A stretch of 29,673 nt of DNA from the NCBI GenBank assembly GCA_042408635.1, contig JBHOQZ010000606.1, positions 1 to 29,673 of the forward strand. The letters run 5' to 3'. Positions 7,048-17,635 of the stretch are shown here, piece by piece. The stretch is from Chloroflexota bacterium. Its GTDB lineage: Bacteria; Chloroflexota; UBA6077; FW602-bin22; JBHOQZ01. The notes under the pieces were generated by a model that ran no database searches, was not told where the DNA came from, and saw only the letters and a program-made list of their open reading frames with translations. The position numbers and the translations under genes were made by a program. Position 1 is the first letter of the stretch. Each line of letters starts with the position of its first letter.

Positions 7048-8388
7048 CTAGGCGACGAGGACGGCCGCCTCGACCGCGCCGATGGCGGCGTCGAGGATCC
7101 CGAGGATCTCGTCGATGTCGGCCGGCGTCGAGACGAGCGGCGGGGCGAGGACGAGCCAGTTCGGGTCGGCGCGCATGAGCAGTCCGCGCTCGCGCGCGGC
7201 CCGGCTGACCTGGAGGCCGAATTTCAGGTCGCGCGGGAAGGGCCGGCGCGTGGCGCGGTCGGCGACGAACTCGACGCCCTGGAGCAGCCCGATGCCGCGC
7301 ACGTCCCCGATGCTCGGGTGGCGCGCCGCCAGCGCCTCCAGCCCGGCCCGGAGCTGGAGGCCGCGCTCGCCGGCCGCCCGGCAGAGGTCGTAGTCCAGCA
7401 GCTCGCGCAGCACGGCGGTGCCGGCGGCGCAGGAGACGGGGTTGGCGCCGTAGGTGTGCCCGGCCATGAATTGGCGCCCCTCCTTGCCGGTGAACGCCGC
7501 CGCCACCTGCTCGGCGATCAGCACGGCCGAGAGGGGCGAGTAGCCGGCGCTCATCCCCTTGCCGACGCAGAGCAGGTCGGGCACCACGCCCATGCCGGGA
7601 CCGCCGAAGAGGTGGCCGAGGCGGCCGAAGCCGGTGATGATCTCGTCGAAGATGAGGAGCACGTTGTGCCGGTTGCAGATGTCGCGCAGCGTCGGCAGGT
7701 ACTCGGGCGGCGGGACGATGAAGCCGCCGCCGGAGACAACCAGCGGCTCGACGATGATGGCGGCGACCGTGTTCGGGTCCTCGCGCTCGATCGTGCGCTC
7801 GATCAGGGTGGCGCAGGTGAGGCCGCACTCGGGGTAGGTCTTGTCGAAGGGGCAGCGGTAGCAGTAGGGCGGGTGGACGTGGACGAAGCCGGGCGGCATC
7901 GGCTCGAACGGCGCCTTGCGGTCGCCCGAGCCGGAGGCGGACATGGCGCCGAAGGTGCCGCCGTGGTAGGAGCCGTAGCGCGAGATGATCTTGTACTTGT
8001 TGGGGTTGTCGGTCTGCTTGTGGTACTGGCGCGCCAGCTTCATGGCGTTCTCGGTCGCCTCGGAGCCGCCGGAGAAGAACTTGACGGCGGTCAGGCCCGG
8101 CGGGGCGTGGTCGAGCAGCAGGCGCGCGTAGGCGAGCGCGGCGGTGTTGGTCGAGAAGAGCGGCGCGCCGAAGGCGAGCGTGTTGAGCTGGCGCACGATG
8201 GCGTCGATGACGCGGCGGTTGCCGTGGCCGAGGTTCGAGACGAAGACGCCCGAGAGGCCGTCGATGTAGGTACGCCCGTCGACATCCTTGAGCCGGATCC
8301 CCTCCCCCTCGGCCAGCACCAGCGGATCGCGGGCGAATTCGCTCATCTGGGTGAAATCGATCAGCACGCGCTCGATGATCTCGGTCAC
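7048..8388 (-). CDS. Class III PLP-dependent aminotransferase (omega-amino acid/BioA-like)
   Basis: YIDGLSG, LGHGN, SGGSEATENAMKLARQY, SYHGGT, IVEP, FDEIITGFGR, GKGMSAGY (PLP lysine), GHTYGANP. AAGGAGG/GGAGG upstream of GTG 8388. Confidence 0.93.
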   Translation of the reverse strand: MTEIIERVLIDFTQMSEFARDPLVLAEGEGIRLKDVDGRTYIDGLSGVFVSNLGHGNRRVIDAIVRQLNTLAFGAPLFSTNTAALAYARLLLDHAPPGLTAVKFFSGGSEATENAMKLARQYHKQTDNPNKYKIISRYGSYHGGTFGAMSASGSGDRKAPFEPMPPGFVHVHPPYCYRCPFDKTYPECGLTCATLIERTIEREDPNTVAAIIVEPLVVSGGGFIVPPPEYLPTLRDICNRHNVLLIFDEIITGFGRLGHLFGGPGMGVVPDLLCVGKGMSAGYSPLSAVLIAEQVAAAFTGKEGRQFMAGHTYGANPVSCAAGTAVLRELLDYDLCRAAGERGLQLRAGLEALAARHPSIGDVRGIGLLQGVEFVADRATRRPFPRDLKFGLQVSRAARERGLLMRADPNWLVLAPPLVSTPADIDEILGILDAAIGAVEAAVLVA

Positions 8389-8489
8389 GGCCTCCGCCTC
8401 CTTACGCTCTGCTCCATGCCGGCCACCGTCAGCCGCCACAGCCCTGCACCACGCCCAGCCGCCGGCAGCGCCGACGGGCACCGCGCCGA

Positions 8490-8498: not shown

Positions 8499-8577
8499 GA
8501 ATCGCGCCCTTCGACGCGCCGATCCCAACCCTGATCGATCGGGAAACCCGCGGCCTGATGAAACAGCGGCACAGACA

Positions 8578-8810
8578 TCACGTTTCAAGAAAGTTCGCAA
8601 ATCGCAACGACGCGACAACACCGCCGCCACCCAAGCGGGCCTACCCGAATGACCGGACCGACGCCGAGTGGCTGCTGATCGCGCCGCTCGCGCCCACACC
8701 CCGGCCGCGCCGCCCGCCGCTGGCTCATCCCTGACGCGCGGTCGCCAACGCGGTCCTGGACGTGCTGCCCGAGGGCTGCCGCGAGCGCCACCCGCTGCAC
8801 GGGTGGACCG
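8578..8810 (+). mobile_element. Decayed IS5-family transposase N-terminus with a possible degenerate terminal repeat
   Basis: Frame from 8633 reads KRAYPNDRTDAEWLLIAPLAPTPRPRRPPLAHP*RAVANAVLDVLPEGCR, matching the IS5-type pattern YPSDLTDAEW..IAPLLP..GRP....REVVNAILYVLRTGC. In-frame TGA at 8732; no DDE domain follows. CGTTTCAAGAAAGT at 8581-8594 resembles IS5-group ends. Confidence 0.75.
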
Positions 8811-8921
8811 CCCCACGACCTGCCGCCTGACTCCTGCTGGCGTTGACCCGCCTCGTGTTGTGGCGATTGGCTGCCCATGCCCGACAGGCATGGGATCTCC
8901 AAAGGTCAGGAGCTCAGCTAC

Positions 8922-8974
8922 TTGACGCCCTCCGTCTCAGGCGCTAACGTATCGATACATCCGTATTATCGTAT
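8922..8974 (+). promoter_or_regulatory. Sigma70-type promoter of the mer operon (TTGACG-17 bp-TAACGT) followed by an imperfect palindrome ATcCG-TATTAT-CGtAT (8959-8974), candidate ArsR operator
   Basis: -35 at 8922-8927, -10 at 8945-8950, AT-rich dyad immediately downstream, AAGGAG at 8991-8996. Confidence 0.65.
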
Positions 8975-9006
8975 AAATGCGAGACAGGCGAAGGAGAAGG
9001 CGGGCT

Positions 9007-9233
9007 GTGCGGTGGTTTTTTCTGGTCGGTGCGCTCGCGCGCCGATCACCGCGCTCTGGAGTGCGGGTATCTTGATGTCCCTGCTGCTCGCAGTGCTCGT
9101 CGCCGCGGGTCTTGGCGGTCTCACGCCAGGCGTGAATCGGGTGTTGTCCCCCTGATCGGCCTGTCCCTGCTGCTAGCCGGCCTCGGGTGGCGAGCCGGGA
9201 AGGCGTGGACGCCTGCTCGACAAGGAGGTATGA
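9007..9233 (+). pseudogene. Frameshifted small membrane protein, possibly a decayed MerF/MerT-like transporter
   Basis: RBS plus GTG 9007 gives MRWFFLVGALA; hydrophobic text continues in a second frame (APITALWSAGILMSLLLAVLVAAGLGGL) and a third (GVVPLIGLSLLLAGLGWR). Confidence 0.4.
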
Positions 9234-9237
9234 ACTG

Positions 9238-9849
9238 GTGGGCAAGCTTCGACACCCTTCTTCATTCCACCCTGGCCTCGCGTGGCTTCTCTTTGTGCTC
9301 CCGAGCATTGCTGTCCTGGCCTGCTCGCCTTCGGCGAGCAAGCCCCCCTCAGCCGCAAGTGCAGCGTCCCCCTTAGCCAATGCATCTGTATCGGCAACAC
9401 CCCAGCGCCCCAACGGAGCAGTGGGTAGCCGTGCGCCAAATTTCACTGTGGCAACGCTCGATGGACAGTCCTTCACCCTAGCCCAACAAATCGAGCACGG
9501 CCGTGCCACGGCAGTTTTCGTGATGGCCACGTGGTGCACGACCTGCATCGACCCGACAAAGCAGCTGGGCGAGCTTGCCAATATCTACCGAGAGCGCGGA
9601 CTCGACGTCTTGGTCCTCGACGTCGATCCCAAAGAAACGCCGGAGGACCTGGCGCGCTTCCGCAACCGCTTCAAGGGCGGTGACCACCTCTGGGCGGTCG
9701 ATCAGGGCAGCACCATCACCCTGCAGTACCAGATCCTAGCGCTGGAAACCTTGATCCTGATCGACAAGACCGGCCAGATCGTCTACCGTGATACGGTTCC
9801 GCGCAATCAGGGCGCACTTCGCAAGCTGCTGGAGGGAGTCCTCACGTGA
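9238..9849 (+). CDS. Thioredoxin-fold (TlpA/redoxin) lipoprotein, WCTTC active site
   Basis: AAGGAGG at 9222-9228 before GTG 9238; lipobox AVLA-C; APNFTVATLDG, MATWCTTC, LVLDVD, ALETLILIDKTG. Confidence 0.85.
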   Translation: MGKLRHPSSFHPGLAWLLFVLPSIAVLACSPSASKPPSAASAASPLANASVSATPQRPNGAVGSRAPNFTVATLDGQSFTLAQQIEHGRATAVFVMATWCTTCIDPTKQLGELANIYRERGLDVLVLDVDPKETPEDLARFRNRFKGGDHLWAVDQGSTITLQYQILALETLILIDKTGQIVYRDTVPRNQGALRKLLEGVLT

Positions 9850-10553
9850 CCTACCTGGTCGAGGGTCTCCCCCTCTTACTTGCCTTCTCCGCCGGCCTCG
9901 TCGCAACCGTGAACCCCTGCGGGTTTGCGATGCTGCCGTCGTTTGTCTCCTATCTTCTCGGGACTGAGGACGAGGGATTTGTTCAGGCCTCGGTCGTCCA
10001 CCGAGCGTTGCTGGGGCTAGGCCTCGGCCTAGCGCTCACAATGGGCTTTCTGGCGGTCTTCCTCACGATCGGCCTAATCGTGTCGTTGGGCGGGCGGGCA
10101 ATCTTGCCACTAATACCGTGGGGGACGCTGATAGTCGGTGTGCTGATGGTCGGTCTGGGCATCTGGATCGCCGCCGGTCGATCGCTGGGCCTGTCCCTGC
10201 CACACGTTGCAGCGGTCCACCCCGGCCGAGGTATAGGCGCCATTGTGCTCTTCGGGGTTGCCTACGCTGTGGCGTCGCTTGGATGCACGCTGCCGATCTT
10301 TCTGGTCGTTGTCGGTAGTGCGCTCACGTCGAGTGGTCCGCTTGCCGCTCTCCTCCTCTTTATCGCCTACGGATTGGGAATGGGGGTGGTGCTGGTCGCG
10401 GTCAGCTTGGCTGCCGCGCTCTTCCAGAGCATGCTAATCAGCCGGCTCCGTGCGGTGCTGCCCTACGTCAGCCGTCTCAGCGCCGCGATCCTGATCCTTG
10501 CGGGTATCTATCTCGTCGTATTCGAGCTCAGTTCGGGCCTCCTGCTGTCATAG
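9846..10553 (+). CDS. ccdA: CcdA/DsbD-family transmembrane electron transporter
   Basis: NPCGFAMLP and LGCTLPIF Cys motifs, about 6 hydrophobic helices; GTGA overlap with the upstream stop. Confidence 0.9.
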   Translation: MTYLVEGLPLLLAFSAGLVATVNPCGFAMLPSFVSYLLGTEDEGFVQASVVHRALLGLGLGLALTMGFLAVFLTIGLIVSLGGRAILPLIPWGTLIVGVLMVGLGIWIAAGRSLGLSLPHVAAVHPGRGIGAIVLFGVAYAVASLGCTLPIFLVVVGSALTSSGPLAALLLFIAYGLGMGVVLVAVSLAAALFQSMLISRLRAVLPYVSRLSAAILILAGIYLVVFELSSGLLLS

Positions 10554-10588
10554 CAGGAGGTACGACACTCCACATAGGGAGGGAACCG

Positions 10589-11008
10589 ATGTCTTCACGT
10601 TATGCAGCCTCGACCCTAAAGCTGAGCCAGTCAGGCGCTGGGCGCTTCCTCGCATTCATTGTGCTCGCCGGCGCTGCGCTGCTATCGTCCCCCACGGCCG
10701 ATCCGGTGACGGTGACGGCGCACCCACAGGTTGGACCGTCCATGGTCGCAGCCGCCCCTGCAGCAGCACTGGCCCAGGTGGTCTACCACCCGTCATACCT
10801 GCAGCCGGCTGTCCAGCAGGATCCCTGTTGCATCATCTCGCCGAGCGTGGCGGCGCAGCTGATTCGCCAGATCCTCGCTAAGCTGCCAGGCATCGCCGAT
10901 GTGACCGTCGACGCCGCTACAGGTACGCTCACGGTAAGCTACGACCCGGCCCAGGTGCAAGAAGAACAGATCACAGCATTGTTGACCGAGGAGTATTTCC
11001 TACCATAG
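10589..11008 (+). CDS. Exported or membrane-anchored HMA-fold (MerP/CopZ-like) protein with vicinal CC instead of CxxC
   Basis: N-terminal hydrophobic segment; C-terminal DPCC...LIRQILAKLPGIADVTVDAATGTLTVSYDPAQV matches the HMA beta-alpha pattern; GGGAGGG RBS. Confidence 0.7.
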   Translation: MSSRYAASTLKLSQSGAGRFLAFIVLAGAALLSSPTADPVTVTAHPQVGPSMVAAAPAAALAQVVYHPSYLQPAVQQDPCCIISPSVAAQLIRQILAKLPGIADVTVDAATGTLTVSYDPAQVQEEQITALLTEEYFLP

Positions 11009-11041
11009 GCATGCTGGCAGCGGTGATGGCTGCCAAAGTAC

Positions 11042-11437
11042 ATGGGAAGAGAGGCAACTTTCGTGGGAAGTAACGCAGGGACGGCGGCTGTCAGTGCCCA
11101 GGTAACGCCAGCGAGCGCACCCGATGCGCAGGTCGAGTTGCTGGCGAAGTTCTTCCGGGGGCTGGGCGATCCCACCCGGCTGCAGATTATCGAGATCCTG
11201 CTAGAGGAAGGTGAGCAGAACGTCAGCCAGTTGGTCGAACGGGTCGGGGGATTGCAGGGGCGGATCTCCTCACACCTGATGTGCTTGCGCTGGTGCGGCT
11301 TTGTCACGACCGAGCGTCGCGGCAGGTATGTTTACTATCGCGTCAGCGACGAGCGGGTGGCCGAGTTGGTGCGCTTAGGCCGACACTTGCTCTTGGAGAA
11401 TGCTCAGCAGGTGCTGGCTTGCCAGGTGATCCGCTAA
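11042..11437 (+). CDS. ArsR/SmtB-family metalloregulator, CmtR-like
   Basis: FFRGLGDPTRLQIIEIL, ISSHLMCLRWCGFVTTERRGRYVYY, and a Cys near the C-terminus (VLACQVIR). Confidence 0.92.
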   Translation: MGREATFVGSNAGTAAVSAQVTPASAPDAQVELLAKFFRGLGDPTRLQIIEILLEEGEQNVSQLVERVGGLQGRISSHLMCLRWCGFVTTERRGRYVYYRVSDERVAELVRLGRHLLLENAQQVLACQVIR

Positions 11438-11471
11438 CGAAACCTACCGGCACGGGTGATGACGAAAGACG

Positions 11472-11753
11472 ATGCCCTATCAGGCCGTCCCTGGGGAGAG
11501 CCGTGCCTTGCCCGAGGTCGAGCCGTCTCGCGATCACGCTCGGCGAGGCGTCGTACTTGAGTATCTGCTGATGGGTGCGGCCGTCGCCCTGCTGCTGACT
11601 GCACCTGAGCCCTCCCGCGCCGCGGCGGGATCAGTCAAGCAGACGGTAGCCCAGGCCCTCCGGGAGCCCCGAGCATCCGGGAACGACGCCGGGCTGCGCG
11701 AGACAGGTTGCGCGATTGCCTGCCCGTGGCCGGGTGCTGCGATTCGGAAATGA
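11472..11753 (+). CDS. Hypothetical small membrane-anchored protein with a CAIACPWPG motif
   Basis: One hydrophobic stretch (VVLEYLLMGAAVALLLTA); co-directional gap between arsR and merT; no family recognised. Confidence 0.35.
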   Translation: MPYQAVPGESRALPEVEPSRDHARRGVVLEYLLMGAAVALLLTAPEPSRAAAGSVKQTVAQALREPRASGNDAGLRETGCAIACPWPGAAIRK

Positions 11754-11820
11754 CGCCGCGGGCCGACATGCGCGACATACGCTAGCGCTTGGTTGCCCAA
11801 TCACCAAACGGAGAAAGCTC

Positions 11821-12213
11821 ATGGAAATAACGGCACAGAAGCGGCAACTGACCGGGAACTCCATCGCCCCGATAGCCGGTAGGCCGCTAGCTGGCAGCGT
11901 GGTCGCCGCGCTGGTGGCCTCGCTCTGCTGCGGCGGCTCGCTCGTATTCGCCTCGATCGGACTGGGCGCGCTCTACGCCAGCCTTGGCCTCTCGCAGTAC
12001 ATCCCCCAAGTCTTGGCAGCGGGCACGCTCACGATCGTGGCGCTCAACTGGCTCTTCTACCGCCGGAAGGCCATGGTCGGAGGGCTCGCCCGCGACGGCA
12101 ATGCGCTGCGCCGGGCAATGTACGCGAGTGCCGTGCTGGGACTGGTCATGATGGTGGGCAGTTTTCTCTTCTCACTGCCATTACCCAACCAGGCACGGCC
12201 CGAACGCGCCTGA
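11821..12213 (+). CDS. merT: MerT-like mercuric ion transporter
   Basis: AALVASLCCGG vicinal Cys in TM1, three hydrophobic segments, GGAG RBS before ATG 11821, mer context. Confidence 0.75.
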   Translation: MEITAQKRQLTGNSIAPIAGRPLAGSVVAALVASLCCGGSLVFASIGLGALYASLGLSQYIPQVLAAGTLTIVALNWLFYRRKAMVGGLARDGNALRRAMYASAVLGLVMMVGSFLFSLPLPNQARPERA

Positions 12214-12258
12214 GGCAACGGAATCGAGACGATCGCTAACCCCAAGGAGACAACGACG

Positions 12259-12606
12259 ATGGCACCTCGCGGGCTCAAAGGGTACGTGCTGCTCGGGTCA
12301 GCGCTCATCGCCTGCCCCTGCCATCTCCCGCTGATCGCCGCACTCTTGGCCGGCACCGCAGTCGGCGGGTTGATCACCGCGCATCTGGGCCTGGTGTTCG
12401 CTGCGCTGGCGGCGTATTTCGTGCTGGCCCTCGTCCTGGGCGTGCGCTGGGTCGCGTCCGCGTCGGAATCCGCGGCAGCAACGACGATCTCCCGCTGTGC
12501 CATCCCGCACGCGGATTCGGCCTCGTCTACCCCGGCTATCCTCGAGCCTGCGCGCGCATCGATGGGTAACGGCTTGGCGAGTCCTCTGGCAGAGCAGGAG
12601 CGATGA
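12259..12606 (+). CDS. merE: MerE-like mercury transporter with a C-terminal extension
   Basis: ACPCHLP motif, two TM segments, AAGGAG RBS. Confidence 0.8.
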   Translation: MAPRGLKGYVLLGSALIACPCHLPLIAALLAGTAVGGLITAHLGLVFAALAAYFVLALVLGVRWVASASESAAATTISRCAIPHADSASSTPAILEPARASMGNGLASPLAEQER

Positions 12607-13199
12607 AGGACCCCGTCCAGCAACATCCTGCCTCAGCCCACGGCGCCCAGCCGTCCCCGCGAGGGCGCGTCCTGGCCGCCATCCTCGCGATTCTCGTTGT
12701 GGGACTGGCGATTGGACTCCTGGTCGGCGGGCGCCTGAGTCTGAGTGGCGCGCGGTTCGGCCTCGCCAGCGGCCCGGCAAGGCTGGCGCTTGGGGAGCCA
12801 GCCCCCGACTTCGCCCTGGCGGCTCTCGACGGAGGCGTGATGCAGCTTGGCGCATTGCGGGGCCGGCCAGTCGTGCTCAACTTTTGGGCCACCTGGTGTG
12901 CGCCCTGCCGGATCGAGATGCCCGAGATCGCGCGCGTTCATGCGCAGTTCCGGGACCAGAACCTGTCGGTCATCAGCATCGATCTGCAGGAGGATCCCAA
13001 GATCGTCCGGGCGGCGGTCACGCGCGGTAGGTTCCCCTGGACATTTGTGGTTGATCCTGATGGGGCGGTGGCCCGCTCGTACCAGATCAGCTCGCTGCCC
13101 AGCACTGTCTTCATCGATCGAGCGGGCATCGTGCGCGAGGTGTTCGTCGGCGCGATGACACGGGAGATGCTTGAGCAGAAGGTTCAGGCATTGCCGTGA
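12603..13199 (+). CDS. Membrane-anchored TlpA/ResA-like thiol-disulfide oxidoreductase
   Basis: APDFAL, VVLNFWATWCAPCRIEMP, SSLPSTVFIDRAG with the cis-Pro present; ATGA overlap with merE. Confidence 0.92.
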   Translation: MKDPVQQHPASAHGAQPSPRGRVLAAILAILVVGLAIGLLVGGRLSLSGARFGLASGPARLALGEPAPDFALAALDGGVMQLGALRGRPVVLNFWATWCAPCRIEMPEIARVHAQFRDQNLSVISIDLQEDPKIVRAAVTRGRFPWTFVVDPDGAVARSYQISSLPSTVFIDRAGIVREVFVGAMTREMLEQKVQALP

Positions 13200-13492
13200 G
13201 CACTCTCGGGCTGGGTGGGCGGCACGCCATCGCCATCGGTGGTGCGGTGGTAGTCTCCGGGATTGGTTTCTTCCTCCTCACTGATGCGCTTAGGACTCCA
13301 CCGCCCAAACCGGTGCCGCCAGTGACCGTTGCGTCGTTAGGCGCCGCCGTCTGCCCGTTCCCGAGCGGGACGAGCGGCTCGGTTCCACCTGGAGCAACCT
13401 GCACCTTGCCCGATGCGCTCCGCTCGGCTGGTGAGGGGGTGCAAGAGGCGTATACACAACATCGGCTAACCCGAAGGCGGTGTCGCCGATAA
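13196..13492 (+). CDS. Hypothetical membrane-anchored Pro-rich protein with a VCPFPSG motif
   Basis: GTGA overlap with the tlpA stop, N-terminal TM segment, ends 18 bp before merA. Confidence 0.5.
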   Translation: MSTLGLGGRHAIAIGGAVVVSGIGFFLLTDALRTPPPKPVPPVTVASLGAAVCPFPSGTSGSVPPGATCTLPDALRSAGEGVQEAYTQHRLTRRRCRR

Positions 13493-13510
13493 GCCGAGGA
13501 GGGCAGGACG

Positions 13511-15166
13511 ATGCATGGCCAATCATACCGTATGCCGGTTACGGGCATGACCTGCGAGCACTGTGAACTCACGGTGGCTCGGGCGCTGGAGCGGGCTGGG
13601 GCAACCAAGGTCACGGCGGATTTTCGCCGTGGTGAGGCCCGCTTCACGGTGCCCGCCATGGCTGATCTGTCGGCACTGGCCGCTGCGGTAGCGAATGCCG
13701 GGTACACGCCAGGCCAGATTGAGCCGATGCCTACCGCCGCACGGTCTCGGGGCCGCCATTCTGCAGCCAAGCACCAGTACGATCTGGCCATCGTTGGCTC
13801 GGGCGCCGCGGCGATGGCCGCCGCGATCAAGGCCACCGAACAGGGTGCCCGCGTGGTGATGATCGAGCGCGGGACCATCGGTGGCACCTGCGTCAACATC
13901 GGCTGCGTGCCCTCTAAGACCTTGCTCCGGGCTGGCGAACTATTCTACCAAGCCGGGCACCAACCCTTTGTGGGGATCCAGATCCAGGCTGTCGGCGTTG
14001 ATCTGGCCGCGCTTGTGGGTCAGAAGAACGAGCTGGTGGCACAGCTGCGCCACGAAAAATACGAGAACCTGATCGCCGACTACGGCTGGGATCTGGTGCG
14101 GGGTGAAGCGGCCTTTATCGATGGGGAGACCCTGGCCGTCAACGGGCGCTCGATCCGCAGCCGCAACGTCCTGCTAGCCACCGGGGCAGCACCGGCAGTT
14201 CCCGCGATCCCTGGACTGGCTGAGAGCGGGTATCTGACGAGCACCACGGCGCTGGAGCTGGCCCACGTCCCCAAGAGCCTCGTCGTGATCGGATCGGGCT
14301 ATATCGCCTTGGAGCTGGGGCAGCTCTTTCATCACCTGGGCAGCCGCGTCACGCTGATGCAGCGCAGCCCGCGTATCCTGAAAAGCTACGAACCGGAGGT
14401 CACCGAGGCTGTTGCCGGAGTGCTTGCCGAGCAGGGGATCGAAGTCGTCACCGGGGCACGTTTTGTACGGGTCGAGACAACGGCCGCGGGCAAGCGGGTG
14501 GTGGTCGAGGTCAATGGTGCCCCCCGCGTGGTTGAGGGTGAGGTGCTGCTGGTGGCAACCGGGCGTACACCCAATACCCAGGCGCTCCATCTGGAGCGAG
14601 CGAGCGTGGCAGTAGGCGAACGAGGCGAGATCCTCGTCGACGACTGGGGCCGCACCACCAACGGCCGCATCTATGCCGCCGGCGACGTCACCTTGGGTCC
14701 ACAGTTTGTCTATGTAGCTGCCTATGAAGGCAGCGTTGTCGCCGACAACGCGCTCAACGACGCCAACCGTGCCTTTGACCTACGCGTGGTCCCTGGGGTC
14801 ACCTTCACCACGCCGGCGATCGCTACCGTTGGGTTGACAGAGGCCGAGGCCACGGCGGAAGGCTTGAGTGTCAAGACGTCGGTCCTACCAGCTTCGGCGG
14901 TGCCGCGGGCGATCGTGAACCGCGACACACATGGCGTCTTCAAGATTGTAGCCGACGCCACGACCAACCGGATCGTCGGGGTGCACGTGGTGGCTGAGAA
15001 CGCCGGCGACGTGATCTACGCCGGGGTACTCGCCGTCAAGTTCAACCTCACCGTCTCGGATCTGACTGAGACGCTCGCACCGTACTTGACGATGGCAGAG
15101 GGCCTCAAACTCGCCGCCCAAACCTTTAGCCGCGACGTCAGCAAGCTCTCTTGTTGCGCGGCGTAG
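13511..15166 (+). CDS. merA: Mercuric reductase with one N-terminal NmerA (HMA) domain
   Basis: GMTCEHC; GSGAAA FAD motif; GGTCVNIGCVPSK; GSGYIALE; YAAGDV, FVYVAAYEG; C-terminal LSCCAA. Confidence 0.98.
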   Translation: MHGQSYRMPVTGMTCEHCELTVARALERAGATKVTADFRRGEARFTVPAMADLSALAAAVANAGYTPGQIEPMPTAARSRGRHSAAKHQYDLAIVGSGAAAMAAAIKATEQGARVVMIERGTIGGTCVNIGCVPSKTLLRAGELFYQAGHQPFVGIQIQAVGVDLAALVGQKNELVAQLRHEKYENLIADYGWDLVRGEAAFIDGETLAVNGRSIRSRNVLLATGAAPAVPAIPGLAESGYLTSTTALELAHVPKSLVVIGSGYIALELGQLFHHLGSRVTLMQRSPRILKSYEPEVTEAVAGVLAEQGIEVVTGARFVRVETTAAGKRVVVEVNGAPRVVEGEVLLVATGRTPNTQALHLERASVAVGERGEILVDDWGRTTNGRIYAAGDVTLGPQFVYVAAYEGSVVADNALNDANRAFDLRVVPGVTFTTPAIATVGLTEAEATAEGLSVKTSVLPASAVPRAIVNRDTHGVFKIVADATTNRIVGVHVVAENAGDVIYAGVLAVKFNLTVSDLTETLAPYLTMAEGLKLAAQTFSRDVSKLSCCAA

Positions 15167-15895
15167 GGAGGACGACGACCCCGCCTGCGTCTGCAGTGAC
15201 GCCCGTGTGCATGAAGAGCATCCGGGCTCAAGTGAGACTCCTTGGCGCAGACCCTACAAGCATATGCTTCTAAGCGTTCGTTGTAGGACACGGGGAGCAA
15301 GAGCAGCGAGGAATCCGTGGCCGCACACGCCCAGCAGGCACAGCCGAACTCTCTGGAGCGGGCGGTGGCTCGGGTTGATGGGGGAGTCCGACCGCTGCCA
15401 GCGTCGACAGCCAGGCGATCAAGACGACGAACCCGGCGGCGCTGCCGAGGACGCCGGGGGAGAATGGGTCAAGGGGTGCAAGCGGCACCCGCGGGTGGAC
15501 ACTGACGGTCTGGTGCCGAGGGGAAGCGCTTAGCGCCGACCTGGCGGCGGTCGAAAGGGGAGGCCTGGCTAGCCGATGCGCGCCGGGCGTCCCTCGCCCT
15601 CCCTGGAGGTGGTCGGGGAAGACGGAGCCTGTCAGGGCTTGGGTGAGTGGGTCCGCTTGTGCCGTTCGCCCTCCATGCTGATCAGTCGTGCGGACTCGAA
15701 GATCGGCGCCGGATCATGGACATGGCGGCGAGCCTCTCGCTGATTGCCTGCGGCACAGCTTCATTATAAAGAGGTGGCCTCACGATCAGGAGGTGGCCTC
15801 GCGCTTATCGTCCTGGGTAGACTGCATATGTTTCGGGTGCTGTCATCGGGTCGGGTGGCGCACCGGTTCACGCAGAAGACACGCGGGCAGGAACA

Positions 15896-17584
15896 CTAGG
15901 TGCGGCCGGTGACGCGGGCGGTGGCGCGTTCGAGGAGGCGGATGGCGTCGGCGCCGTCGGCCGGGAAGGTGGCGATGCCCAGGTTGGCGCCCACCTCGAC
16001 CGTGGGCGCCGGCTGCGGCCCCTCGATCGGGAAGGGATCGGCCAGCGCCGCCAGCAGCTTCGAGCCGACCACGGCGGCACCCGCCTGATCCGTTCCCGGC
16101 AGCACCACGGCAAACTCGGCGCCGCGCAGCCGGGCCAGGGTCGAGACGCCGGAGCGCACCACCCCCAGCAGCCGGGCCGCCACCTGCCGCAGCAGGGCAT
16201 CGCCGCAGTGCAGGCCGTAGGAGTCGTTGACCGCGCCGATGCCCTGCAGATCGAGCACGAGCAGCGTCACCGGCTCCGCCTGGCGCCGCGCCTGCGCCAG
16301 CGCCTCCTGCAACCGTTCGAGGAGCAGCCGCCGGTTCGGCAGCCCCGTCAGCAGGTCGTAGAGCGCAAACTGGCGCAGGTACTCCTCCGATCGCCGCTGC
16401 TCCGTCACGTCGCGCAGCAGGACGATCCAACCCGCCCCGGCGGGCCAGGCGCCGCCCGGCCCCTCCAGCTCCCCCAGCCCGCCGACCGGTGAGCGACCGG
16501 GGGCGGTGACGTCGCTGCCGGCGCCCCGGAGGCCGGCGTCGACGGCACCGCCAGGCGCCGAACGCACCCGGTGCGCCAGCGGCGCCAACCGCACCTCGTA
16601 GTAGCGCAGGTTCGCCTCGGTGCCCAGCGCCACCTCCGGCGCCGCGCCCGGTTCGTCGTCCTCGACATCCAGAGCGGTGCCGGCAGGCGCGGCGGACGCC
16701 GCGAGCAGGTCGTCGAGCGAGCGCCCGAGCACCGTCACCAGTTCACGCCCGAGCACGTCGTCGTGGGGACGGCCGAGGAGGCGCAGCGCGGCGGGGTTGA
16801 GGTCGACGACGCGCCCGCGGCGGTCGAGCACGATCACCCCGTCCTGCATGGCCGCCAGCACCGCCTCGTGGGCGACCGGCATCAGGTCGAGGAGGCGCAG
16901 GTGGAAGAGCGCGTAGCCCCAGAGCAGGGAGGTGACCGCGAAGGCGGGGGGCGTGATGTCGAGCCGGCCGAAGGGGCTGAGCCCGCTGATGTAGAGGAGG
17001 TTGACGAGCCACGGCACCAGCGCCCCGGCCAGGAGGGCGACGACCTGGGCGCGGTAGAGCGCAGGCGAGCGCAGCGCCGCCTGGACCATGAGCGCGGTGG
17101 CGAGCAACTGCACCCCGTAGCTGTAGGTCACGTGGACATACCACCAGGGTCCGCGCGTGATCCGCAGCGCCGGGAACGGCCCGTCCACGCCCATCAGGCC
17201 GACGCTGCTCCAGTGCAGGCCGTGGAGGTCGTTGGTGAGCACGATCAGCAGGGTGCAGGTCGGCACCAGCGCGAGCAGGCGGAGGGTCCGCGGGGTGAGC
17301 CAGCGGTCGCGCCCCGTGTAGGCGAGCGCGAAGACGAGCCCCGCCACCGGCAGCGGGGCGATCCCGACGTATTCCAGCTTGGCGAACAGCAGCTTGGTGG
17401 CGAGGTCGGTGCCGGCCGCCTCGCCGGTATAGCCGAGCGCGAAGAGCGCGCCGGAGAGGGTGAAGAGCGTGAAGGCAGCGGCGCCGTGCGTGCCCCGATG
17501 ACGCCAGGCGTAGGCAGTCAGCGCCGCCATGAGCAGGCCGCCGACGAGCGAGGGGAGCGCGTAGGGGGTGAAGGCGAAATGCAT
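15896..17584 (-). CDS. 7TM sensor (HisKA_7TM-like) plus PAS plus degenerate GGDEF domain protein
   Basis: Multi-TM N-terminus (YTGR, GPWWYVHVTYSY, DITPPAF), PAS (DGVIVLDRRGRVVDLNPAA), LRDVTE, YDLLTGLPNRR, VNDSYG; signature reads RGAEF. Start ATG 17584 or 17608. Confidence 0.88.
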   Translation of the reverse strand: MHFAFTPYALPSLVGGLLMAALTAYAWRHRGTHGAAAFTLFTLSGALFALGYTGEAAGTDLATKLLFAKLEYVGIAPLPVAGLVFALAYTGRDRWLTPRTLRLLALVPTCTLLIVLTNDLHGLHWSSVGLMGVDGPFPALRITRGPWWYVHVTYSYGVQLLATALMVQAALRSPALYRAQVVALLAGALVPWLVNLLYISGLSPFGRLDITPPAFAVTSLLWGYALFHLRLLDLMPVAHEAVLAAMQDGVIVLDRRGRVVDLNPAALRLLGRPHDDVLGRELVTVLGRSLDDLLAASAAPAGTALDVEDDEPGAAPEVALGTEANLRYYEVRLAPLAHRVRSAPGGAVDAGLRGAGSDVTAPGRSPVGGLGELEGPGGAWPAGAGWIVLLRDVTEQRRSEEYLRQFALYDLLTGLPNRRLLLERLQEALAQARRQAEPVTLLVLDLQGIGAVNDSYGLHCGDALLRQVAARLLGVVRSGVSTLARLRGAEFAVVLPGTDQAGAAVVGSKLLAALADPFPIEGPQPAPTVEVGANLGIATFPADGADAIRLLERATARVTGRT

Positions 17585-17635
17585 GGGGCTATCCCTGCCC
17601 GGCGTCACGGCTGATGGCCCCGGCCCCGGCCGGGC

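Follow-up and report, generated by a model that had tools for sequence, protein, structure and literature searches.

Mercury-resistance (mer) operons take several forms. In the Tn21 and Tn501 operons of Proteobacteria, an outer thiol binder (MerP), intramembrane cysteine pairs (MerT and MerE) and the mercuric reductase, MerA, make up the line, and no dedicated supply of reducing power accompanies them. In the pI258-type operon of Staphylococcus aureus, a gene for a thioredoxin-fold protein overlaps ccdA by 4 bp, and the two lie upstream of a gene for a cysteine-motif transporter and of merA. To our knowledge, no function has been published for its TlpA-family and CcdA open reading frames (ORFs). 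In actinobacteria (e.g. on plasmids of Rhodococcus ruber and Streptomyces longwoodensis, and in clusters of the Streptomyces lividans 1326 type), an ArsR-type regulator is found with a weak MerT-like gene, a redoxin and CcdA, divergent from merA–merB. Related in mechanism, finally, are the CcdA–ResA/TlpA and CcdA–Etrx pathways (e.g. the pneumococcal surface thioredoxins; PMC3914529), in which a CcdA-type protein is joined with an anchored or lipidated thioredoxin-fold partner, and the clients are apocytochromes or MsrAB. Here we describe a mer cluster that resembles each of these in part. It occupies positions 8922–15166 of a 29 673-nucleotide contig (JBHOQZ010000606.1), referred to in its entirety as ‘the window’, from a Chloroflexota bacterium, and at its center is an overlapping redoxin–CcdA gene pair.

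The window belongs to a metagenome-assembled genome (MAG) of 1088 contigs that is 78.7% complete, and the sequencing runs that contain its DNA are hot-spring and microbial-mat metagenomes; RNA runs were looked for, and none is listed. All of the credible genes within 8.9–15.2 kb lie on the plus strand. They encode, in order, an exported redoxin lipoprotein that we term Rdx1; a CcdA-like membrane protein; an exported HMA-fold protein, HMA-CC; an ArsR-type regulator; a MerT-like and a MerE-like membrane protein; a second redoxin, TlpA2; and MerA. Much of this had been anticipated. An original prediction listed a redoxin lipoprotein, ccdA, an HMA protein with a CC motif in the absence of a canonical merP, arsR, merE, a second redoxin (tlpA) and merA, in a run on one strand that included neither a MerR-family regulator nor merB, and on all of these points our analysis agrees with it. 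We consider it somewhat more probable than the contrary that these genes form a mercury-resistance cluster under ArsR control, on an island that a hot-spring bacterium acquired horizontally. We also lean, if only slightly, toward the view that the outside capture of Hg(II) would fall to Rdx1 and HMA-CC, and that CcdA, with TlpA2, would keep their exposed thiols reduced.

The cluster is by no means a new kind of system. It is a richer, two-redoxin version of the known redoxin–CcdA mer arrangement, and what it adds to the operons known to carry the pair is TlpA2, a canonical reductase; HMA-CC; a MerE-like and an unnamed MerT-like protein; a decayed MerF-like gene; and a different phylum. Between the staphylococcal CcdA and that of the window, identity is 35%, and the staphylococcal redoxin likewise has glutamate at the position that, in TlpA/ResA-type reductases, is occupied by a conserved cis-proline. 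The pI258-type operon differs from the window in that its regulator is a MerR-family activator, in its possession of merB and a recognized MerT, and in its lack of a second canonical TlpA, HMA-CC and MerE. The actinobacterial clusters have an ArsR with the same cysteine site as that of the window, and their redoxins, too, are without the cis-proline. They differ from the window in being divergent from merA–merB; in having serine at the cis-proline position; in an extra hydrophobic C-terminal segment in CcdA, followed by a tail with two CC pairs (L023:5001–5993 and L024:4989–5948); and in having no TlpA2, HMA-CC or MerE. In the Streptomyces plasmid cluster, ccdA is followed directly by genes for a VKOR-family protein and a second reductase. 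With Tn21/Tn501 the window shares a recognizable, MerE-like homologue (CPCH), an exported HMA-fold protein and, to judge from its genes, the order of outer thiol binder, intramembrane cysteine pairs and MerA. It differs in the loop of its HMA protein, where CC stands instead of GMxCxxC; in a MerT-like protein that fails the MerT models and has no cytoplasmic cysteine pair; and in a regulator of the ArsR type. Unlike those of the CcdA–ResA and CcdA–Etrx pathways, the clients in the window would be mercury-handling thiols; the CcdA-coupled redoxin has no cis-proline, and no ResB was found in the genome as assembled.

In several phyla, merA is repeatedly accompanied by the redoxin–CcdA pair, whose two genes are translationally coupled. 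Among 401 genomes drawn evenly from the phylum, MerA scored above the curated cut-off in 61; the regions 8 kb to each side of these merA genes, together with loci fetched earlier and the window, gave 63 merA loci, and 17 of them (27%) have a CcdA-like gene no more than 8 kb from merA. In most of the 17, the CcdA-like gene is immediately preceded by one for a redoxin, and the neighborhood often includes MerE-like and ArsR genes. Three further relatives from the same order add to these cases of linkage. Among same-order relatives, merA, ArsR, redoxin, CcdA and, often, MerE-like genes occur together in five genomes, in varied gene orders and orientations. The arrangement is also found on plasmids. 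Homologues of the window CcdA (35–45% identity) occur in 70 plasmid records, of which 40 are from Staphylococcus; the order in the one staphylococcal record that was opened is merR, TlpA family, CcdA, merT, merA and merB. On the Rhodococcus and Streptomyces plasmids, merA (with merB) faces ArsR, the weak MerT-like gene, a TlpA-like gene and CcdA. The overlap of redoxin gene with ccdA that typifies the Gram-positive mer operons is present in the window, where it amounts to 4 bp, as it does in Staphylococcus and Rhodococcus; in Streptomyces it is 1 bp. In all, the linkage extends across Bacillota, Actinomycetota and Chloroflexota, and to single MAGs of Methylomirabilota and Pseudomonadota. A survey of merA neighborhoods for ccdA and redoxin genes had been proposed with the original prediction as a check, and the occurrence of a similar pair in staphylococcal mer operons had been suggested; the survey finds recurrent linkage, and the suggestion was correct. 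By the criterion set with that prediction, the staphylococcal precedent makes the module under-studied rather than unique, and the actinobacterial clusters are a further precedent. In the literature available to us, we found no functional study of the pair in mer operons. Standard surveys of these operons tabulate merT, merP, merC, merF, merE, merG and merH and leave out the redoxin–CcdA pair (PMC3466566). Another account (PMC8261052) makes no mention of DsbD.

Rdx1 (9238–9849, plus strand) is the upstream member of the pair. Its start codon is GTG, 8 nt past AAGGAGGT, and the protein scores 61.7 bits against the Pfam Redoxin model, with a lipobox (VLAC) and a CTTC active site. An AlphaFold2 model of Rdx1, with a predicted local distance difference test (pLDDT) score of 88, resembles ResA structures most closely, at template modeling scores (TM-scores) of 0.90–0.94 when normalized to the target; Etrx structures are also among its sequence matches. 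When Rdx1 is aligned to ResA (4nmu), glutamate stands opposite the cis-proline, so that the conserved cis-proline of TlpA/ResA reductases is missing. Work on human thioredoxin, as cited in PMC2665069, indicates that loss of this proline lets the CxxC thiolates bind metal.

TlpA2 (12603–13199, plus strand) overlaps the MerE-like gene by 4 bp and is membrane-anchored. It scores 94 bits against Pfam AhpC-TSA and 91 bits against Redoxin, and it has a WCAPC active site, an N-terminal hydrophobic helix and the cis-proline, in the loop SLPST, of the TlpA/ResA family. Against the NCBIfam ResA model it scores 114 bits, under the subfamily cut-off of 170. By these family scores and motifs, TlpA2 is a predicted reductase of the canonical TlpA/ResA type. 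The original prediction had presented the two redoxins as copies of tlpA. Both do have the thioredoxin fold; they are not equivalent, Rdx1 being without the cis-proline and TlpA2 canonical.

The distinction between the two holds well beyond the window. TlpA2, and the partners of CcdA at loci unconnected with mer, form one class, with WCxPC and cis-proline; proteins like Rdx1 form another, with CxxC and no cis-proline. The redoxin encoded directly upstream of ccdA has glutamate or aspartate at the cis-proline position in 13 of 14 loci seeded with merA. In other mer loci, this residue is glutamate (Staphylococcus), serine (Rhodococcus and Streptomyces) or glycine (an Arthrobacter locus). When the counts are pooled—they were made partly by hand, and are not corrected for relatedness—22 mer-linked CcdA partners are without cis-proline and 2 have it, whereas 41 of 49 non-mer partners have it and 8 do not. 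The redoxin coupled to CcdA, being without cis-proline, looks like a metal binder, and TlpA2 alone like a canonical reductase. A canonical, cis-proline reductase of the TlpA2 type is present in the cluster in the window and in loci L107, L133, L010 and L011.

Several related proteins have features of their own. The canonical TlpA2 orthologues downstream of ccdA in two relatives of the same order, L010 (10139–11017, minus strand) and L011 (4953–5786, minus strand), end in an AGCC(P)AP tail that resembles the C-terminus of MerA. In three loci from Rubrobacteraceae (L046, L048 and L092), the redoxin that precedes ccdA has glutamate at the cis-proline position and, possibly, only one active-site cysteine, and no merA lies within 12–13 kb; in L048, a gene for an NHL-repeat protein lies just upstream of it. 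And an uncharacterized thioredoxin-like protein of Aeropyrum pernix, of solved structure (PDB 3HA9), has WCPSC and, like the mer-linked class, aspartate at the cis-proline position.

The CcdA-like protein (9846–10553, plus strand), whose gene overlaps that of Rdx1 by 4 bp, is a six-helix membrane protein and a predicted thiol–disulfide transporter. Its identification as CcdA, made in the original prediction, is supported by a full-length profile match, although its Pfam score is sub-threshold. A profile of eight homologues (seven of them mer-linked; the eighth lies where its contig ends, and no merA is visible) aligns over positions 1–223 with positions 1–203 of the solved CcdA of Thermus, 5VKV (E = 9e-4). 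Both catalytic cysteines, in helices 1 and 4, match, NPCG falling on SPCV, and LSCTLP on TPCIGP. One homologue that is 44% identical to the window protein (L041) passes the Pfam DsbD_TM model, with 28.4 bits. The cysteine motifs, VNPCGFAMLP and SLSCTLP, are identical in mer-linked and non-mer CcdAs, and no mer-specific residues were found apart from one Ala/Ser column. Because these motifs are unchanged, ordinary thiol–disulfide chemistry is favored over a specialized mercury channel; together with the coupled redoxin gene, they are indirect support for a CcdA that would pass reducing equivalents from cytoplasmic thioredoxin to an outer thioredoxin-fold partner.

The steps of such a system can be laid out as follows. 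Outside the membrane, the thiols of lipoprotein Rdx1 and of exported HMA-CC would bind Hg(II), Rdx1 by means of a CxxC motif in a thioredoxin fold free of the cis-proline that normally blocks metal binding. The ion would move next to the intramembrane cysteine motifs of the MerT-like and MerE-like proteins, and then to the N-terminal domain (NmerA) and the C-terminal CC of MerA, to be reduced to Hg(0). Because outer dithiols oxidize, and a disulfide cannot bind mercury, CcdA would be needed to supply reducing power. It would import reducing equivalents from cytoplasmic thioredoxin to the outer face, and would keep the capture thiols reduced, either directly, as for Rdx1, or by way of canonical TlpA2. 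The module would be a redox-maintained line for mercury capture, then, and not a second detoxification enzyme. More generally, and more tentatively—we put it at slightly less than an even chance—the mer-linked thioredoxin-fold proteins without cis-proline (with Glu or Asp in Chloroflexota and Staphylococcus, and Ser in actinobacteria) may be a distinct class of extracytoplasmic Hg(II)-binding proteins that replace MerP, and whose dithiol is regenerated by CcdA, here with TlpA2 as intermediary.

The same pair could be read in a different way, as the importer itself. Rdx1 would then act like MerP, and the cysteines of CcdA would carry Hg(II), as MerT does, by alternating access and without electron transfer. 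This is how such proteins have been annotated historically: a 2025 review lists TrxA-domain and CcdA-domain proteins of actinomycetes as ‘mercury transporter’ (PMC12195606, Table 4). The pair takes the place that merT and merP have in other operons, and its genes are translationally coupled; further points in favor are the absence of cis-proline from Rdx1 and the two CC pairs in the extra C-terminal segment of the Rhodococcus and Streptomyces CcdAs. However, all of the operon types examined encode a separate, small, cysteine-motif membrane protein as well. In Staphylococcus it is MerT, in actinobacteria it is MerT-like, and in Chloroflexota it is MerE-, MerT- or MerF-like. The cysteine motifs of CcdA cannot be told apart from those of non-mer CcdAs that have cis-proline partners, and TlpA2, the canonical reductase encoded alongside, needs an electron donor. 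We regard direct import by the pair as unlikely.

The company that CcdA keeps elsewhere bears on another possibility. The CcdA subfamily is found outside mer as well. Among 80 loci seeded with the window CcdA (39–51% identity), only about 7 have a bona fide merA nearby; some 50 are of an Acidimicrobiia type in which WhiB is followed by a TlpA with cis-proline and CcdA (e.g. L035 and L041), with no merA. Nor do the mer-linked CcdAs form a single clade, as we had considered: they are mixed in the tree with non-mer members from Chloroflexota, Rubrobacter and Desulfobacterota. The mer-linked sequences fall outside a large and distinct clade made up of the Acidimicrobiia, and the tree does not resolve the placement of the window protein. 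Membership of the subfamily in a ResB/CcsA cytochrome c system was also considered, and was rejected; ResB was found neither here nor in five other genomes that bear the subfamily.

The module might, then, be a mercury-inducible system of envelope repair or backup that re-reduces, or de-mercurates, extracytoplasmic thiol proteins of the host blocked by Hg(II) (for example, apocytochromes c or assembly factors for copper centers) and does not feed MerA. Consistent with this are the mostly non-mer, housekeeping-like contexts of the subfamily, such as WhiB–TlpA–CcdA; the fully canonical character of TlpA2; the absence of another CcdA, or of ResB, from the 78.7%-complete genome; and the induction by Hg(II) of a tlpA gene in Thermus thermophilus (PMC6445937). 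Left unexplained, however, are the mer-specific loss of cis-proline from the redoxin that is coupled to CcdA; the mercury-type motifs that module proteins carry, namely the CC tails of TlpA2 in L010 and L011, the two CC pairs of actinobacterial CcdA and a MerF segment, fused to Rdx1, in a sibling of the cluster described below; and the movement of the module together with merA, by plasmid and by island, across phyla. We rate repair as less likely still than direct import. That redoxin and ccdA are mere neighbors of merA on one mobile island, with no functional tie to mercury resistance, is very improbable: the cluster does lie on an acquired island, a few transferred cassettes could have founded many linked loci, and the spacers and decayed genes of the window suggest relaxed organization, but the linkage survives many gene orders and orientations across phyla, its frequency of 27% among sampled merA loci compares with a chance expectation that we put, for a gene present in one or two copies and as a rough estimate, not a computed null, at well under 1%, and the partner redoxin carries a mer-specific sequence signature.

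Several observations weigh against mercury capture by thiols that CcdA keeps reduced. The window CcdA-like protein itself misses the Pfam DsbD_TM (PF02683) threshold, with 13.5 bits against 27.1. Two merA-linked loci (L049 and L073) pair CcdA with a redoxin that has cis-proline, and some redoxins without it, such as those of the Rubrobacteraceae loci L046 and L048, have no merA within 12–13 kb. No second CcdA-like gene was found in the genome, which is incomplete, and the island CcdA, as the sole one found, may have a general housekeeping role. The counts of association take no account of common descent or of islands transferred whole. The window copy, moreover, is decayed: its MerF-like gene is a pseudogene, its MerT-like gene is short, two spacers measure 383 and 311 bp, and some steps of the relay may fail in it. 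Given the long spacers and decayed genes, neither a single transcript nor full function of this copy is assured.

The remaining proteins of the cluster are, for the most part, recognizable relatives of known mer components. MerA (13511–15166, plus strand) scores 608.3 bits against the equivalog model TIGR02053 (cut-off 454.45), and the same in a search of the whole genome. It has the full set of motifs—GMTCEHC in NmerA, the redox motif CVNIGC, and SCCAA at the C-terminus—with a Pfam HMA domain at residues 10–66, and by score and motifs it is predicted to be a true mercuric reductase. No second merA was found in the assembled genome, and no merB homologue in the window or the genome.

HMA-CC (10589–11008, plus strand) has the HMA fold (Pfam HMA, 34 bits; cut-off 24.8) and an N-terminal hydrophobic segment, and its sole cysteines are a vicinal pair in the metal-binding loop (DPCC). 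It scores 16.5 bits against the NCBIfam model for Gram-positive MerP, for which the cut-off is 110, and the GMxCxxC of MerP is replaced by CC. This agrees with the original prediction of a CC-type HMA protein where a canonical merP might have been expected, and HMA-CC is plausible as a candidate non-canonical MerP. A word-based search of 5.8 billion proteins returned one close homologue only. HMA proteins with a CC loop also occur near merA in L106, L107 (10593–10742 and 16636–16812), L016 (4578–4802), L111 (6563–6721) and L118 (5553–5879); some have an export signal and others do not.

The regulator (11042–11437, plus strand) scores 83.3 bits against the ArsR/SmtB-type model NF033788 (cut-off 55) and 56.8 bits, below the cut-off, against a CmtR-like model. 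Its cysteine site (HLxCLxxCG, i.e. CxxxC, and a C-terminal cysteine) is shared by 48 homologues that adjoin merA, those on the Rhodococcus and Streptomyces plasmids among them. With its predicted winged helix, candidate thiolate sensing site and adjacency to merA, it appears to be a mer regulator of the ArsR/SmtB type, and its sequence places it with the ArsR-type regulators found alongside merA in Chloroflexota and actinobacteria. There is no MerR-family gene within the cluster, which is normal for mer operons of the ArsR type. The mer genes of Streptomyces lividans, according to work cited in PMC3466566, are repressed by an ArsR-type regulator.

The MerT-like protein (11821–12213, plus strand; 130 aa) has a CC pair in helix 1. 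A start at TTG 11716 was considered, and was replaced by ATG 11821 on the strength of homology to a 177-aa protein, 58% identical, encoded by L106. The original prediction had called this gene merT, and that description stands in part. The protein is MerT-like in its helix-1 CC; its scores fall below the MerT models (16.5 bits against Pfam PF02411, cut-off 32.9, and 19.4 bits against NF010314, cut-off 150), it has no cytoplasmic cysteine pair, and its corrected start makes it small. The family to which it belongs comprises 65 related protein clusters and has no Pfam domain; because most members are 170–225 aa long, we count the window protein as short. All three of the family neighborhoods that were read are mer-type, and one such locus has, in this order, ArsR, a MerA-like reductase, the MerT-like family, a redoxin and DsbD_TM. 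The MerE-like protein (12259–12606, plus strand), with CPCH in helix 1, scores 38.2 bits against Pfam MerE (PF05052; cut-off 22.8) and 47.5 bits against NCBIfam MerE (NF010310; cut-off 80). Its tail of about 50 aa (12430–12606), which includes an RCAIP motif, is not conserved in the L106 protein.

L106, a contig of 3.9 kb that comes from another sample, carries a syntenic sibling of the operon, with the same gene order as the window. Proteins of the two are 58–89% identical across the five genes from CcdA to MerE; the Rdx1 region of L106 was not recovered by this protein comparison. Upstream of Rdx1, and in frame with it, L106 has an intact segment of the MerF family (PF11431, 28.7 bits; cut-off 24.3). 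The stretch of the window that aligns with it (9007–9230, plus strand) has lost one nucleotide at each of two places, by comparison with L106, and TGG AGT, that is, WS, now stands where the CC codons were. Because of these deletions and the mutated CC codons, we call it a pseudogene, a decayed MerF-like gene. It was absent from the gene list of the original prediction.

Two genes on that list, each a small ORF with cysteines, have been removed. The first, at 11472–11753, has flat GC content across codon positions (0.60 at second positions, GC2, and 0.71 at third positions, GC3) and the second, at 13196–13492, likewise (GC2 0.64, GC3 0.66). Neither has homologues, and given both properties we have dropped them. 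The first falls wholly inside the extra length of the spacer between arsR and the MerT-like gene (11438–11820), which is 383 bp in the window and 35 bp in L106. When this spacer and the 311-bp spacer ahead of merA (13200–13510) were compared by tblastx and blastn with all of the fetched loci, only compositional noise was found, and no conserved coding content. The cluster had also been described as a partly overlapping run. There are two overlaps, of 4 bp each, and five gaps, of 35, 33, 383, 45 and 311 bp, and so its compactness is partial.

The island that carries the cluster extends from about 8500 to 15900, both boundaries being approximate. Its GC content is 63–67%, against 72–76% in the flanks, and GC3 is 0.72–0.80 in island genes and 0.93–0.98 in host genes; because of these lower values, we read the cluster as lying on acquired DNA. 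To the left is an aminotransferase gene (7048–8481) and to the right a gene for a 7TM-PAS-GGDEF protein (15896–17608), both on the minus strand. Fragments of the ends of IS5-type transposases were suspected by eye at about 8640–8734 (DAEWLLIAPL) and at 15400–15533 (KRHPRVDTDGL). They were not confirmed: Pfam was silent, and the flanks are unrepeated in the assembly. Ahead of the first gene, at 8922–8950 on the plus strand, is a putative promoter, TTGACG-17 nt-TAACGT, and TTGACT-17 nt-TATAAT is aligned with it at the equivalent place in L106. A consensus promoter scan of the window passed nothing, and did not list this site. Terminator-like sites in the window are no more numerous than in shuffled sequences.

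What the cluster means for the biology of mercury resistance depends mainly on the redoxin–CcdA pair, which occurs in about a quarter of the sampled merA loci of this phylum and in the classic operons of Staphylococcus and actinobacteria. Should the pair keep mercury-binding thiols of the cell surface reduced, or be itself the binder, this would explain how Hg(II) can be captured by thiols in oxidizing surroundings without a protected periplasm, and it would provide a clean, natural case of a thioredoxin fold turned metal binder by loss of the cis-proline. If the proteins without cis-proline do form a class of their own, redox-maintained metal capture would be a main accessory to mercury uptake in these phyla, which are mostly single-membrane, and it would have been missed by surveys confined to merT, merP, merC, merE and merF. 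The main interest lies less in the window locus, then, than in the general idea of a thioredoxin fold that, reduced by CcdA and without its cis-proline, may serve as a capture site for Hg(II).

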